14,640 nt of DNA from a virus (Duplodnaviria; Heunggongvirae; Uroviricota; Caudoviricetes): the IMG/VR virus record IMGVR_UViG_2630968342_000015; one strand, 5' to 3'. Of the stretch, positions 1 to 14,640 are shown piece after piece (the stretch's first letter is position 1; the number at the start of each line of letters is the position of its first letter). The notes beneath the pieces were generated by a model, which saw nothing but the letters and a program-made list of their open reading frames with translations, searched no databases and had not been told where the DNA came from. A program made the translations under genes and the position numbers.

Positions 1-1218
1 ATGAACAAACTGAGCGATACCTTGCTAAGGAAACTTCATGGTAAGCCAGCGGAGAAAAACACGTTTTATAGTGATGGCGGAAACCTGAGCGTGAAATATT
101 TAACATCAGGGAAATTGACCTGGTATTTCACATACAGGGCCGGAACGGGAAGGGAGACACGACCCGAACGCATTAAGCTGGGAAGTTATCCTGATCTGAG
201 CCTGAAAGCAGCCAGGGAAAAAGCCGCACAGTGTCGCACATGGCTGGCTGAGGGGAAAAATCCACGTCATGAGATGAATTACACCGTACAGGAAGCGTTA
301 AAGCCCGTAACGGTTGGCGATGCGCTCACCTACTGGCTTGAGTATTACGTAAAGGAAAACCGCGTGGATTATATCGCCCTGAAAAGGCGACTTAATAATC
401 ACGTAATACAGCAGATTGGTGCTATGCCGCTGGATAAATGCGAGCTACGGCACTGGCTGGCCTGTTTTGACCAGGTGGCAAAGCGAACGCCTGTTACTGC
501 CGGATTCGTGCTACAGGCGTGCAAACAGGCGCTTAAGTTCTGCCGTAGGCGGCGCTATGCAATCAGCAACGTTCTGGACGATCTGAACGTGGCGGACGTT
601 GGGAAAAAACCGGATATAAGCGAACGTGTCTTAAGTAACAAAGAACTTGGCGAATTATTGCAGGCACTGGACAAAAAAATATTCTCCCCTTACTACGTCG
701 CGTTAATCCGCCTCCTGATTGTCTTCGGAGCCAGAACGGTAGAACTGAGGTTATCGGAGATCGGAGAGTGGGATTTTACGGAAATGCTATGGACCGTTCC
801 GAAGGAGCACAGCAAAACGAAGGTCGCAATATTCCGGCCCATACCGGAAGCGATCCTGCCGTTCGTCACGCAGCTGGTGGAGCAGAACAGGCACACGGGC
901 TTATTGCTGGGGGAAGTGAAACAGGAGGCCAGCGTATCGCAGTATGGAAGATTAGCGCACAGGAGGCTTAATCATCCTCACTGGTCACTGCATGACATCC
1001 GGCGCACCTTTACAACCATGCTGAACGATTTAGGCGTTGATCCGCATGTCGTGGAGCAGCTTACAGGCCACCAGATGCCAGGAATGCAGCGAGTTTATAA
1101 TCATTCCCGTTATCTGGATGCTAAACGCAATGCGCTGGATATGTGGACGGAGCGGTTAGGGATACTGGCGGGAACACATGAAAACGTAACCACGCTACCA
1201 GTAGCCAGAAGAAAATAA
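1..1218 (+). CDS. int: P4-family tyrosine integrase (site-specific recombinase)
   Basis: 405-aa ORF. The N-terminus has the P4-type arm-binding pattern (LSDTLLRKL...FYSDGGNLSVKY...W.FTYR...RIKLGSYPDLSLKAAREKA). The catalytic region has ARTVELR, HDIRRT and a C-terminal tyrosine region (RVYNHSRYLD). Confidence 0.95.
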   Translation: MNKLSDTLLRKLHGKPAEKNTFYSDGGNLSVKYLTSGKLTWYFTYRAGTGRETRPERIKLGSYPDLSLKAAREKAAQCRTWLAEGKNPRHEMNYTVQEALKPVTVGDALTYWLEYYVKENRVDYIALKRRLNNHVIQQIGAMPLDKCELRHWLACFDQVAKRTPVTAGFVLQACKQALKFCRRRRYAISNVLDDLNVADVGKKPDISERVLSNKELGELLQALDKKIFSPYYVALIRLLIVFGARTVELRLSEIGEWDFTEMLWTVPKEHSKTKVAIFRPIPEAILPFVTQLVEQNRHTGLLLGEVKQEASVSQYGRLAHRRLNHPHWSLHDIRRTFTTMLNDLGVDPHVVEQLTGHQMPGMQRVYNHSRYLDAKRNALDMWTERLGILAGTHENVTTLPVARRK

Positions 1219-1258: not shown

Positions 1259-1310
1259 GAACAGATACAACGTGCAACAATGAGCAACAATGCGGAACAA
1301 CTACGAACAA
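1259..1310 (-). repeat. Array of six TTGTTC-like motifs, five of them on a 10-bp phase (minus-strand orientation); candidate protein-binding array
   Basis: The plus strand reads gaacag/atacaa/caacaa/caacaa/gaacaa/gaacaa, with the last five ending at 1270, 1280, 1290, 1300 and 1310. The reverse complement of 1285-1310 matches 6862-6887 at 22 of 26 positions. Confidence 0.7.
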
Positions 1311-1592: not shown

Positions 1593-1781
1593 GTGTTAAG
1601 CACTGATCGGTTTATACGTGAAAAAGAATGCGAAAAGCTAACAGGCCTTAGCCGCTCATGCCGCTACCGCCTGGAAAAGGCCGGACAATTCCCATCACGT
1701 CGTAAACTTAGCGGTCGTTCCGTTGGCTGGTCTTTATCCGAGGTTCTGGCCTGGAAGGATAGCTGCAAGGCAGTTCATTAA
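1593..1781 (+). CDS. alpA: AlpA-family (MerR-like wHTH) regulator/excisionase
   Basis: 62-aa ORF with a GTG start 5 nt after AAGGGGG. Matches the Phage_AlpA pattern (EKLTGLSRSCRYRLEKAGQFPSRRKLSGRSVGWSLSEVLAW). Sits downstream of int as in P4-like islands and PICIs. Confidence 0.85.
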   Translation: MLSTDRFIREKECEKLTGLSRSCRYRLEKAGQFPSRRKLSGRSVGWSLSEVLAWKDSCKAVH

Positions 1782-6861: not shown

Positions 6862-6896
6862 TTGTTCGTGGTTGTTCCACGTTGTTCACTGACAGG
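6862..6896 (+). repeat. Three TTGTTC motifs on a 10-bp phase upstream of the head operon; candidate activator/Rep-binding site and promoter region
   Basis: TTGTTC at 6862, 6872 and 6882. The 15-mer TTGTTCCACGTTGTT (6872-6886) recurs exactly at 14374-14388. A possible -10 TATTTT lies at 6904-6909. Confidence 0.65.
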
Positions 6897-11798: not shown

Positions 11799-13443
11799 GT
11801 ACGCAGAAGACGTAAAAACGGGCAAAATTCAGGCCTGTAAACGGTTAAAACAGGCCGTTAAACGGTACTTTTCGGACCTTAAAAGCCCCCTTTACACGTT
11901 CGATCGTGAGGTTGTGGATCGGTTTATTGCCTTTTCCAGGGTGTGCCCGCACGTAAAAGGGCCGATGCGTGGCAGACCCATTGAGCTGGAGCCGTGGCAG
12001 CAGTTCGCCTTTGCGTGCATCCTCGGCTTTAAGGTTAAGGCCACCGGACGGCGCAAATATACGAGCGCCTTTATCGAAGTGCCGCGCAAAAATGCTAAAT
12101 CAACGACCGCCGCGATTCTGGCTAACTGGTTTCTGATTATGGAGAACGGTCAGCAGGATATTTACACCGCAGCGGTGAGCCGTGACCAGGCGAGGATCGT
12201 ATTTGATGATGCGCGTCAGATGTGCATTTTATCCCGACCGTTACGCAGGCGGGTGAATATTCAGGCGCATAAGGTGATACACCCGAAAACCAACAGCCTG
12301 TTAAAGCCGCTGGCAGCAAAAGCGGCAACTATCGAGGGCACAAACCCCAGTCTTTCTATCGTGGACGAATACCACCTACACCCCGACAACGGCGTATATT
12401 CTGCGCTTGAACTGGGGATGGGGGCACGTCCCGAAGGGCTGTTATTTGCCATTACCACATCGGGAAGTAACGTCGTTTCAGCCTGTAAGCAGCATTATGA
12501 TTATTGCTGCCAGATCCTGGACGGCGAAGAGGTTAACGAATCGCTTTTTGTGCTGATTTACGAACTGGACGACGAAAACGAGGTTGATGATCCGGAGATG
12601 TGGATAAAGGCGAACCCTAATATCGATGTTTCCGTGGATCGTGAAAAACTGGCCTCAACCATTCAGAAAGCGCGGGGTATTCCGTCGCAATGGGTGGAGA
12701 TGATGACAAAGCGATTTAATATCTGGTGTCAGGGGACTACCCCGTGGATGGGTAATGGTGCATGGGCTGAGTGTGCCGGAACGTTCACGGAGGAAGATTT
12801 ACACGGTCAGGAGTGTTACGCGGGGCTGGACTTATCATCAACCAGCGATATTTCCAGCGTGTGCTATGCCTTTCCGGTCGGTAAAACCATTATGATGATT
12901 TCCCGTCATTATCTGCCGGAGTTCCAGCTACAGAACCCCGCCAATAAAAACCGCGCTGTCTATCGTCAGTGGGCTAAAGCAGGCTGGATACGCACAACGC
13001 CTGGCGACTGCATTGATTACGACCGGATCAGAGATGACATCATGCAGGACGCGGAGAAATTTAATATCAGGCTGGTGGGCTTTGATACGTGGAACGCCAC
13101 GCATCTCAGAACGCAATTACAGGGGGCAGGTTTTGAGGTGGAGCCGTTCCCGCAAACCTACCTCAGATTCAGTCCGGCGGCGAAATCGTTCGAAGTTTTT
13201 GTTAACCGCAGGGTGATTGTGCATCGTGGCGATCCGGTGTTGTCCTGGTCGATGAGTAACGTCGTGATGCAGAGTGACGCGAACGCCAATATCAAGCCGA
13301 ACAAGAAAAAATCACCGAACAAGATAGACCCGAGCGTGGCGGCGCTGATGGCGTTTGGTACATTCCAGGCAGAGCATGAGGATTTTGCTTTTGATATAAG
13401 CGACAGCCACCGCCAGAAACTGGAAGAATTTAGCGGGGTGTAA
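11782..13443 (+). CDS. terL: Terminase large subunit (Terminase_1 family)
   Basis: 553 aa. TTG start with GAGGA 5 nt upstream; no ATG or GTG is available between the upstream in-frame stop and 11782. Walker A-like VPRKNAKST and Walker B-like LSIVDEYH. Confidence 0.9.
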   Translation: MTAWNKYAEDVKTGKIQACKRLKQAVKRYFSDLKSPLYTFDREVVDRFIAFSRVCPHVKGPMRGRPIELEPWQQFAFACILGFKVKATGRRKYTSAFIEVPRKNAKSTTAAILANWFLIMENGQQDIYTAAVSRDQARIVFDDARQMCILSRPLRRRVNIQAHKVIHPKTNSLLKPLAAKAATIEGTNPSLSIVDEYHLHPDNGVYSALELGMGARPEGLLFAITTSGSNVVSACKQHYDYCCQILDGEEVNESLFVLIYELDDENEVDDPEMWIKANPNIDVSVDREKLASTIQKARGIPSQWVEMMTKRFNIWCQGTTPWMGNGAWAECAGTFTEEDLHGQECYAGLDLSSTSDISSVCYAFPVGKTIMMISRHYLPEFQLQNPANKNRAVYRQWAKAGWIRTTPGDCIDYDRIRDDIMQDAEKFNIRLVGFDTWNATHLRTQLQGAGFEVEPFPQTYLRFSPAAKSFEVFVNRRVIVHRGDPVLSWSMSNVVMQSDANANIKPNKKKSPNKIDPSVAALMAFGTFQAEHEDFAFDISDSHRQKLEEFSGV

Positions 13444-13456
13444 TGAGGTCAGCAGC

Positions 13457-13738
13457 ATGACAGAAGCCGAAATAACGGGATTAATCCGCCGCGTTGCCGG
13501 AATCAGCCAGCAGGCTGACGAACAGGCCACGCAGCCGGACAGCGTGACAGCCGAAAACTATGCGCGTGTTGTTGCTGAGGTGATGCGCCGTGATGGTATA
13601 GAACTTAATGGCGTGGATATGCGCAACATACGAACCAGAGTTCTTGAGTTGCTGGCCTACCGTCGCCGCGTGGAGATGTATCGGGAGAAGGAGAAAATAA
13701 CGTACCACTGGAAGAAGCCGGAGCGGTTGCGGCGGTAA
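13457..13738 (+). CDS. Hypothetical protein (93 aa), last gene of the packaging operon
   Basis: GAGGT 7 nt upstream of the ATG. Protein-like composition; no family recognised. Confidence 0.6.
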   Translation: MTEAEITGLIRRVAGISQQADEQATQPDSVTAENYARVVAEVMRRDGIELNGVDMRNIRTRVLELLAYRRRVEMYREKEKITYHWKKPERLRR

Positions 13739-14031
13739 CTGGTTGATATTCCCGACGGACCAAAAATGGGTGGCTACATCCCTCGCTTCTGAGGACTGTT
13801 AACAAGCTGCCTGAAAGACAGTCACAAACTACGAAATTTTCGCAGTTTAATTAATGATCAGCTTAATCGCTAACCCGCTGATATTTTCGGAAACCTCAAT
13901 TTGAGGAAGTCGGCGCGGTAACTCGCTGAACTTTAAGCAAAGTGCAAAATTGCGCTTGCTGAATAATCATTATGATTACGCAGATGATTAAGGAATGACC
14001 GAAGGCGGAAATTCGCCTGTGGTTAATGGGG

Positions 14032-14051
14032 GAGTTGCAGATCTGCAACTC
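14032..14051. repeat. 20-bp perfect palindrome GAGTTGCAGATCTGCAACTC
   Basis: Read directly; the sequence equals its own reverse complement. Confidence 0.9.
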
Positions 14052-14071
14052 GACCATGAAACTACGGAAAC

Positions 14072-14142
14072 TACCCGTAGTTTGGGTAGTAAGAGTAACA
14101 CCCAGATTTTGGGTCTTACTCGTGATACCCAAATTTGGGGTA
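14072..14142. repeat. Three 17-bp palindromic sites (T)ACCC-N7-GGGT(A) with centres exactly 27 bp apart; operator-like or tandem RNA hairpins
   Basis: TACCCgtagtttGGGTA 14072-14088, cACCCagattttGGGTc 14099-14115, TACCCaaatttgGGGTA 14126-14142. Centres at 14080, 14107 and 14134. Confidence 0.75.
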
Positions 14143-14363
14143 TCAGTGGCAACCATAACGACTTTCGTTACGGTTGATGCTTTTACCCCATTGGGGGAAA
14201 GGTATTACGATAATCATAACACCTACCGAACAGGTAAAGCCCACCAGCCTGATTAACGTTTAACCGGAAAAAAATTCCGGTAGGTGGGGATCCCCATATC
14301 GACATTAACGCCCCTCATGAATTGGTGCGCTTCCCCCTGGAAAGATGATCCGCCTGTATATTT

Positions 14364-14398
14364 CTTGTGTCTATTTGTTCCACGTTGTTTCATACAGT
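14364..14398 (+). repeat. Three TTGT-core motifs on a 10-bp phase near the right end; homolog of 6862-6896
   Basis: TTGTGT 14364, TTGTTC 14374, TTGTTT 14384. Shares an exact 15-mer with 6872-6886. Confidence 0.65.
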
Positions 14399-14407
14399 GC
14401 ACCGAAC

Positions 14408-14430
14408 GGTGTAGTCACTGGTGTAGTCAT
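14408..14430 (+). repeat. Tandem direct repeat GGTGTAGTCA x2 (12-bp period); candidate integrase arm-type sites
   Basis: Copies at 14408-14417 and 14420-14429, about 70-90 bp from the presumed junction. Confidence 0.4.
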
Positions 14431-14473
14431 TTTGCGATTTTTGGCACTTTTTGCGGTGAAAATTATTTAATTA

Positions 14474-14486
14474 AATCAACGTGTTA
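14474..14486 (+). promoter_or_regulatory. IHF consensus match (WATCAANNNNTTR) with an A/T-rich upstream tract
   Basis: AATCAACGTGTTA matches every consensus position. It is preceded by AAAATTATTTAATTAA and lies about 15-25 bp from the presumed junction. Confidence 0.45.
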
Positions 14487-14640
14487 TGTGAAATAAGTTA
14501 TATATAACAGCAATAAATAATGCGAGAATAAACGGCACGATGATCTCGGCGGCAAAACGGATACCGCAGAGAATAATGACCAGCATTCCCAACATAATGA
14601 CGATTTTTAGGCCATTGAGCGTGATGATCGGCTTTGCCAT
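14476..14640 (-). pseudogene. tqsA: Truncated 5' fragment of a tqsA/ydgG-like AI-2E (PerM) family permease gene, disrupted by the island
   Basis: The minus-strand ATG at 14640 gives [46 protein letters not shown], which matches my recollection of the E. coli TqsA N-terminus. It then diverges (YNLFHITR) to a stop at 14476-14478. Too short (54 aa) to appear in the ORF track. Confidence 0.55.

Follow-up and report, generated by a model that had tools for sequence, protein, structure and literature searches.

The last ca. 280 bases of a 14,640-nt stretch of viral DNA (IMG/VR record IMGVR_UViG_2630968342_000015; the full stretch is called the window throughout) form the right end of an integrated island, and the segment 14364-14512 is very probably the island-side half of attR, i.e. 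the 'P arm' of the attP attachment (att) site, of a capsid-forming phage-inducible chromosomal island (cf-PICI) which a P4-type integrase has inserted into tqsA, the gene of the autoinducer 2 (AI-2) exporter. The original prediction, made from the letters of the window, had proposed a complete att arm in front of a tqsA-like gene interrupted near codon 47, and had listed, in this order, phased TTGT motifs, a tandem repeat, an A/T tract with a consensus for integration host factor (IHF) and the 5' part of the permease gene on the minus strand. All four elements are found where it had placed them, and the right end reads as follows:

14365-14388, plus strand: TTGT array of three units (TTGTGTCTAT TTGTTCCACG TTGT) in 10-bp phase, at -144/-134/-124 from the att centre
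14408-14429, plus strand: doublet of GGTGTAGTCA with a 12-bp period, at -101 to -80, putative arm-type sites for the N-terminal domain of the integrase
14458-14476, no strand: A/T tract, 95% A+T, directly 5' of the IHF core
14474-14486, plus strand: IHF consensus AATCAACGTGTTA at -35 to -23, which holds the stop codon of the truncated tqsA open reading frame (ORF)
14476-14640, minus strand: chimeric ORF of 54 codons, TqsA residues 1-46 followed by YNLFHITR and a stop
14497-14505, plus strand: putative island-side core-type integrase site GTTATATAT, with nTnATAnAn conserved across three specificities
14504-14512, no strand: 9-bp identity block ATAACAGCA shared by attL, attR and attB, with the putative overlap AACAGCA at 14506-14512
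14504-14640, minus strand: 5' part of tqsA, nt 1-137, identical to K-12

Three E. coli genomes from human commensal strains, G1/2, G6/7 and G8, contain the window at 100% identity, and in the G1/2 neighbourhood it is located between the 3' fragment of tqsA next to pntB and the 5' fragment next to ydgV-mdtJ. The junction has been placed by aligning both island flanks with the uninterrupted tqsA of K-12, and the homology to this empty site ends at window position 14504, with residues 1-46 of TqsA kept and the crossover in codons 43-45, in good agreement with the predicted codon 47. The identification of the fragment as tqsA holds, as the ORF matches residues 1-46 of E. coli TqsA exactly before it runs into the island-encoded end, the underlying DNA (codons 1-45 plus 2 nt) is 100% identical to the K-12 gene, and RefSeq labels the same ORF a truncated 'pheromone autoinducer 2 transporter'. 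The identity block corresponds to tqsA nt 129-137 (codons 43-46) and is common to attL (CCAGCGGGTTAAGAATAACAGCA joined to TTTTATCATTTAGTG), attB (CCAGCGGGTTAAGAATAACAGCAATAAATAATGCGAG) and attR (GAAATAAGTTATAT joined to ATAACAGCAATAAATAATGCGAG). Upstream of window position 1, where the remainder of the gene and a direct-repeat core were to be sought, both are found directly to the left, the second copy of the block lying 14,699 bp leftward and 188 bp outside the window, and core to core the island is a single unit of 14,699 bp.

A true junction elsewhere, at a tRNA gene or another core, or a substitute 5' end that leaves tqsA functional, is very hard to sustain. P4-type integrases commonly target tRNA and tmRNA genes and usually restore them, and a 60-aa ORF annotated across the left arm shares the tqsA frame; yet no tRNA or tmRNA gene is present in the window, and the two tqsA flanks rejoin base-perfectly to the intact K-12 gene, so that no junction further right is needed. 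Read in the tqsA frame, the left end is ...HYETAKNTK-TGA-TAA-AAT-GCT-GTT-ATT-CTT..., and with two in-frame stops (TGA TAA) ahead of the core the island provides no replacement for the TqsA N-terminus, the only circumstance in which the gene had been expected to escape disruption. The earliest in-frame starts in the 3' fragment, GTG-51 and ATG-54, both lack an evident Shine-Dalgarno sequence, and their product would miss the first helix and most of the second. RefSeq marks both halves as pseudogenes, and in the TIGER entries on tqsA the domain-disruption test reads 'yes' (Mageeney et al., 2020; PMC7192596).

The 60-aa ORF itself, annotated by RefSeq as a hypothetical protein (WP_001332680.1; L003 2819-3001, minus strand), lies wholly on the left att arm and overlaps the start of int. 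The product, which is in the tqsA frame, is not hydrophobic, has no Pfam match and ends with TGA TAA three codons ahead of the core; it is probably a mere open stretch over the left arm and no real gene.

In the cryo-EM structure of TqsA (7NB6), helix H1 (residues 7-29) provides the main pentamer contact and is followed by H2 (residues 31-57). The island cuts the gene inside H2 and separates H1 from the rest of the protein, which argues strongly for functional inactivation of TqsA as judged from sequence and structure, while precise excision would restore tqsA exactly.

In a survey of 5423 complete E. coli genomes the tqsA site is intact in 5167 and split in 256, with the right arm of the window island present in 233. 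These carriers span lineages as different as O26, O111, O103, some O157:H7, O55:H7, ST1193, 042 and PCN033, and the tqsA-island arm variants, which are 84-100% identical, are all joined at the same base. The site has thus been used repeatedly, by four diverged arm variants and by classical as well as capsid-forming cargo, with one joining base; one site with multiple independent events and a domain disrupted without restoration are among the features of regulated gene integrity, for which tqsA islands have been proposed earlier as candidates in the TIGER survey (PMC7192596). Regulated excision that restores the gene with a physiological consequence belongs to the same concept, and the evidence on this point is indirect, consisting of the attP junction in two island-only contigs and of an attB that excision would restore exactly.

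That tqsA is nevertheless an accidental or secondary site, with the real target of the integrase elsewhere, for example at roxA/phoQ, is suggested by sibling integrases, 84-91% identical, which use the intergenic sites roxA/phoQ, abgR/smrA and allE, by tqsA being the sole intragenic and gene-breaking site in the set compared, and by the proposal of Bobay et al. (2013; PMC3603311) that gene-disrupting sites are mostly secondary. Against it stand the carriage in 233 genomes of many lineages with a single joining base despite arm divergence, a distinct integrase allele and an attP core of the tqsA islands' own, which equals attB (ATAACAGCA) and is unlike the phoQ-type core; in addition, the TIGER entries group the tqsA islands by integrase into one tight clade, in which independent insertions have occurred repeatedly (PMC7192596). 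An accidental insertion therefore appears most improbable. With respect to the expectation that P4-family integrases use the 3' ends of tRNA or tmRNA genes, the insertion inside a protein-coding gene stands as predicted, while the habit does not extend to this integrase clade, which uses no tRNA genes and whose sibling islands are intergenic (e.g. roxA/phoQ).

The closest guide to the anatomy of the core is the sibling island EcCIEDL933, which is located in the roxA/phoQ intergenic region with the core GGACATATTT and breaks no gene, in contrast to the window island with its core ATAACAGCA in tqsA. The aligned identity blocks of the two islands intersect in exactly seven columns, AACAGCA in tqsA and GGACATA at phoQ, and the EcCIEDL933 sequences on either side of them, GTGATAAAA and TTTTATCAA, form an inverted repeat in 8/9 positions. 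From this intersection and the flanking repeat we infer a 7-bp overlap at 14506-14512, i.e. tqsA nt 129-135 in codons 43-45, with core-type sites in the adjoining 9 bp on each side. The centre of this overlap is the reference for all att-centre offsets given here.

Outwards from the core, the arms have been compared across islands of different site specificity, with nine right arms from three specificities and five left arms from five specificities, the integrases being down to 74% identical. The relatives at abgR/smrA, next to allE and at cspD possess integrases of 84%, 89% and 74% identity, respectively. Compared with EcCIEDL933, identity is about 90% in the right arm (14330-14485) and about 94% in the left arm. 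The homology between specificities runs up to the core, ending ca. 18 nt before it on the right side and abutting it on the left side, and with the most distant right arms, those of the smrA-site islands, it starts at window position 14364, which is also where the original prediction had let the arm begin. Invariant in all nine right arms are the phased CTTGT/TTGT units, the doublet in the form GGTGTAGT-A-T-GGTGTAGT-A and the TCAA and TT of the IHF site. With an overall identity as low as 72%, the five left arms still possess the doublet and most of the TTGT units, and no indel between core and doublet occurs in any arm aligned.

In the right arm the TTGT units start at 14365, 14375 and 14385, one helical turn apart, and GGTGTAGTCA is found at 14408-14417 and 14420-14429, the sole exact copies in the window. 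Window position 1 falls on an ATG inside int, whose annotated start, a GTG, lies 12 nt further left (L003 2989-3001), and the left arm with the second doublet, a five-unit TTGT array and the core is therefore located outside the window. There, TTGT units stand at +77, +89, +99, +109 and +119, followed by a co-oriented doublet at +132 to +153 (L003 2942-2963). The geometry, comprising the offsets of the TTGT units, doublet and IHF site in the right arm and the left-arm offsets, is identical in G1/2, EcCIEDL933 and the classical PICI EcCICFT073, which also share the doublets, the IHF site and the arm arrays as such. Right-arm positions 14364-14431 align without gaps with their left-arm counterpart (52/68 identities), and thus both arms contain one composite module of ca. 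68 nt in a common orientation. One departure from this arrangement is seen in the tqsA island of E. coli 2015C-3163 (L009 636-700), where exactly one 12-bp doublet unit has been lost and a single GGTGTAGTCA is left.

The sequence AATCAACGTGTTA matches the IHF consensus WATCAANNNNTTR perfectly, and its significance comes from conservation, since the right arms all agree in TCAA and TT and differ from one another at the four N positions (CGTG, TGCG, TATG, TGGG, TGGT, TGGC and TAAG), which is the pattern that a real IHF site is expected to leave in an alignment. In the left arm, a plus-strand candidate (TATCAACAGATTT, 12/13) has been discarded as it is not conserved in EcCIEDL933, and the minus-strand near-match AATCAAAAACATA, kept in 4/5 arms and deviating from the consensus, is a candidate only.

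The doublets, with the consensus GGTGTAGTYA, are located exclusively in the att arms, with two doublets per island, and would be the arm-type sites of the integrase, as their sequence follows the integrase clade at fixed period and position and as they occur at the att arms only. This is the role that had been considered plausible for the tandem repeat, and it gains sequence support from the copy in the second arm, the invariant spacing, the presence in five elements with different attB and the Arm-DNA-bind_3 domain of the integrase. Binding of the doublets by AlpA or another factor instead of the integrase arm domain has been left open for the analogous doublets of helper-embedded PICIs (HE-PICIs) by Mageeney et al. 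(2023; PMC10111431). It is improbable here, considering that the doublets are confined to the two att arms while TTGT arrays also occupy internal regulatory regions, and that the letters of the doublet change with the integrase clade (TGTATTGC in HE-PICIs, TAGGCCCA upstream of CP4-57 intA, GGTGTAGTYA here) whereas period and position stay constant. Substitutions in the arm domain of the tqsA-type integrase parallel the changed doublets as well, which is weak evidence as it comes from a single lineage.

In this lineage, the differences between the tqsA-type and sibling integrases are clustered in the arm domain (residues 12-66; e.g. K36 Y37 L38 K42 vs R H S L), and GTTAAT in the sibling doublets is replaced by GTCACT in those of the tqsA type; integrase arm domain and site may co-vary. 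Wider occurrence of the doublet has been scanned for in species-representative genomes, where the matches are mostly due to chance or coding repeats, the relevant ones being Shigella flexneri (phoQ-site island) and Phytobacter massiliensis (island adjacent to fis), so that the scan says little on the spread outside Escherichia. In P. massiliensis (L023 7330-7351) the doublet GGTGTAGTCAATGGTGTAGTCA, preceded by CTTGTT/TTTGTT units, is located beside the 3' end of fis, and thus at least one fis-site PICI uses a GGTGTAGTYA-type arm motif. The left arm of CP4-57 in K-12 (L038 1091-1114) possesses a 12-nt doublet TAGGCCCAttGA (TAGGCCCATTGA TAGGCCCAACGA) 46 nt upstream of intA, and its placement with respect to the ssrA att site resembles that of the PICI doublet. 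Doubled arm motifs may be general for integrases with an Arm-DNA-bind_3 domain.

The excised form predicted from the two junctions has the attP AGTTATATATAACAGCATTTTATCATTTAGTG, with a junction that reads GTTATATATAACAGCATTTTATC. This attP occurs once in IMG/VR, on an 11,098-bp contig (L035) the first and last 119 nt of which are identical and which closes to a 10,979-bp circle, and once in a metagenome collection, on CYGL01000683.1 (11,271 bp). In both contigs right arm, core, left arm and int are contiguous and 99% identical to the prediction, and tqsA sequence is absent from both. A possible trace of island loss is seen in E. coli CFSAN004176 (L037 2223-2690), where tqsA has an internal deletion of ca. 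640 bp and no island, with one endpoint 10 bp from the att core; the deletion may be the scar of imprecise excision.

Overall, the features of a heterobivalent att site are found together: identity of attP and attB with a putative 7-bp overlap, arm repeats on both sides, a two-domain integrase and an IHF consensus in between. Several observations weigh against this interpretation. The IHF match on its own is not significant (2 found in the window against 0.63 expected, with 24/200 shuffles reaching 2), and the tqsA-type core-type sites GTTATATAT and TTTTATCAT form an inverted repeat in only 5/9 positions. Furthermore, both attP contigs are classical PICIs of ca. 11 kb with the same int-att module and not the cf-PICI of the window, and they could derive from tandem chromosomal copies of an island rather than from free circles. 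All the same, they display the junction for which the original prediction had proposed a PCR.

Besides the arms, phased TTGT arrays are found at internal positions of the island, which together with the genes that they adjoin are:

1-1218, plus strand: integrase gene, 409 aa, with Arm-DNA-bind_3, Phage_int_M and Phage_integrase domains, 91% identical to the EcCIEDL933 integrase
1267-1310, minus strand: five-unit TTGT array in 10-bp phase, just 3' of int in the int-alpA spacer, with units close to TTGTTCCACG
1593-1781, plus strand: alpA, 62 aa (PF05930), an AlpA-family winged-helix regulator related to excisionases
6862-6885, plus strand: three-unit TTGT array (TTGTTCGTGG TTGTTCCACG TTGT) upstream of the capsid/packaging operon

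The pattern TTGT-N6-TTGT-N6-TTGT occurs five times at three loci in the window, where 0.00 occurrences are expected (200 window shuffles). The array after int and the one before the capsid operon are both conserved in the O26, EDL933 and IAI39 islands, and the array after int is also present in EcCICFT073 and in the islands at the allE and abgR sites, while the array before the capsid operon is not detected by the strict pattern in the classical PICI EcCICFT073. The cspD-site island has no array after int and provides no information on covariation of AlpA and array, and CP4-57, with an AlpA of 29% identity and no TTGT arrays nearby, is equally uninformative on a role of AlpA.

Induction of PICIs requires AlpA, which also activates the promoter of its own gene (Fillol-Salom et al., 2018; PMC6092414; bioRxiv 10.1101/2022.09.08.507074). 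Because of these two properties and its excisionase relatives, AlpA is the preferred candidate for a protein that would bind the TTGT arrays, with chances that we judge to be roughly even. The more extended proposal, that TTGT(TCCACG) arrays are the AlpA operator and that one motif would serve excision at the arms, int-alpA regulation and the switching on of the capsid operon, is tentative and rather doubtful. According to published work, AlpA of EcCICFT073 left the activity of the int promoter unchanged, and the left-arm array is therefore unlikely to activate int; a role in excision would fit. If the proposal is true, helper-induced excision by AlpA would rebuild tqsA and transiently restore AI-2 export in the induced cell.

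Replication, on the other hand, offers a different explanation of the arrays. The alpha protein of P4 binds TGTTCACC repeats, and the unit TTGTTCCACG resembles the type-I iteron of P4; direct-repeat arrays with a 10-bp period have the typical form of iterons. Iterons for a replication initiator or, as the arrays directly adjoin the doublets in both arms, additional arm-type sites of the integrase are thus possible alternatives to AlpA or excisionase sites, though we hold them to be unlikely. The arm arrays are identical despite different replicases, of the primase family in G1/2 and EcCICFT073 and with DUF927 in EcCIEDL933, origins of PICIs are published as downstream of pri and away from the arms, and arrays also stand after int and before the capsid operon, where the integrase has no known role. 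AlpA, in contrast, is known to activate its own promoter and is needed for induction.

Taken as a mechanism, with AlpA as the preferred directionality factor, these elements would act as follows. A heterobivalent tyrosine integrase of the P4 type would insert the island in tqsA by strand exchange within the 7-bp overlap AACAGCA, its catalytic and core-binding domains binding the weakly symmetric core-type sites around the overlap and its N-terminal Arm-DNA-bind_3 domains the GGTGTAGTCA doublets at -101 to -80 and +132 to +153. IHF bound at -35 to -23 would bend the arm such that a single integrase molecule can contact both arm and core. The least certain step is the action of the AlpA-type winged-helix protein as recombination directionality factor (RDF) on the phased TTGT arrays by each doublet. 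As the left doublet, outside the window, occupies nucleotides 26-47 ahead of the int start codon, autorepression of int by its product is probable, as known from KplE1. Integration leaves tqsA as the stub of 54 codons and a 3' fragment that has no promoter, and precise excision would restore the gene.

The island as annotated in G1/2 encodes int, alpA, an Icd-like gene, a primase, ssb and a PerC-family regulator, followed by packaging genes for major capsid, prohead protease, portal, head closure, connector, HNH, TerS and TerL, while neither tail nor lysis genes are found in the annotated region. As a gene set with its own capsid and packaging genes and no tail genes is the organisation of cf-PICIs, the 14,699-bp island is assigned by gene content to this class as a sibling of EcCIEDL933. 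For EcCIEDL933 (O-island 51/CP-933C/Sp7), induction by a helper phage through alpA and formation of its own small capsids with helper tails have been demonstrated experimentally (Alqurainy et al., bioRxiv 10.1101/2022.09.08.507074); these properties have been shown for EcCIEDL933 only. Both islands have the same gene order and share identical accessions for many proteins (major capsid, connector, TerS, ssb, PerC and others), and the EcCIEDL933 unit, measured as 15,461 bp, fits the published 15.4 kb. They differ in the replicase, primase-family in the window island versus DUF927 in EcCIEDL933, and in the AlpA allele. In the window integrase, PF13356 covers residues 8-95 (E=1.4e-18) and PF00589 residues 214-375 (E=2.9e-16), with a weak match to PF22022.

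Earlier publications describe the disruption of tqsA by integrated elements as well as the PICI family and its capsid-forming members, and the interpretation of the junction given above is correct and largely known. Bobay et al. (2013; PMC3603311) report integrated elements that disrupt E. coli tqsA, and TIGER has catalogued Eco282.16.tqsA, Eco33.11.tqsA and Eco557.15.tqsA (Mageeney et al., 2020; PMC7192596). Like the window island, these elements target tqsA of E. coli, are 11-16 kb in size and disrupt the UPF0118 domain without restoration; the entries concerned provide coordinates and the domain test and no arm anatomy, and the site is probably the same, as judged from gene, host and size. 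The classical PICIs EcCICFT073 and EcCIED1a (Flockhart et al., 2012, PMC3378721; Fillol-Salom et al., 2018, PMC6092414) possess the same int-alpA-att module as the window island, but not the capsid-forming packaging module with its upstream TTGT array, and the ED1a relative of O-island 51 has been mapped between ydgD and ydgG, i.e. tqsA (Flockhart et al., 2012; PMC3378721). From tRNA/tmRNA-targeting P4-like islands the window island differs by an attB within the tqsA coding sequence, its siblings being intergenic.

The arm geometry has its closest parallel in HE-PICIs, where a doubled, co-oriented motif tgTGTATTGCantgTGTATTGCa flanks the attP centre at distances of 81±2 bp on the upstream and 132±2 bp on the downstream side, is reported as absent from other PICIs and has been suggested to bind integrase arm domains or AlpA, with no IHF-like site seen (Mageeney et al., 2023; PMC10111431). 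Both clades have two co-oriented doublets with a 12-bp period, the upstream doublet ending at -80 and the downstream one starting at +132 in the window clade; as the distance convention for HE-PICIs is unstated, the numerical match requires that 81 refers to the motif end and 132 to the motif start. Unlike HE-PICIs, the window clade has the motif GGTGTAGTYA and a conserved IHF consensus. A heterobivalent integrase with core and arm sites and an IHF site in between is likewise known from lambda-type attP and from attL of KplE1 with IntS and TorI, although proteins and site sequences are unrelated to those of the window island (Panis et al., 2010; PMC2951348). In KplE1, the sites of the directionality factor are in direct repeat, and attL overlaps the int promoter, with Int (and the RDF) repressing int (PMC2951348). 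In contrast to lambda and KplE1, the window island has putative RDF-type arrays in both arms and also at internal promoters.

Not found described are the arm map of this clade, the 7-bp overlap inferred from siblings, the conserved IHF site and the TTGT arrays common to arms and internal regions, which are small additions of an ordinary kind and leave the current picture of site-specific recombination unchanged. With them, the doubled-arm-motif geometry of HE-PICIs extends to a second clade. The islands constitute a natural series, in which integrases of 74-91% identity act with near-identical arms on differing cores and targets; the series pins the region of strand exchange to 7 bp and could be of use in directing integrases of this family to new targets. 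With respect to the host, about 4% of complete E. coli genomes, among them many of O26, O111 and O103 and some of O157:H7, are without an intact tqsA owing to a satellite, and AI-2 export and biofilm phenotypes of strains with a tqsA island are to be read with the split gene in mind.

Ahead of the right arm, a scan of 13400-14640 for promoters and terminators yields nothing beyond the expectation from shuffles. The non-coding stretch 14040-14200 folds into three strong hairpins (minimum free energy -67.2 kcal/mol, z = -6.9 vs shuffles), which match no Rfam family, neither in the whole window at gathering scores nor in 13700-14640 at E<=1, and BLASTN of 13990-14260 against phage genomes gives no match. 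The hairpin stretch is absent from the classical PICI contig L035, and it therefore travels with the cargo and not with the att module.

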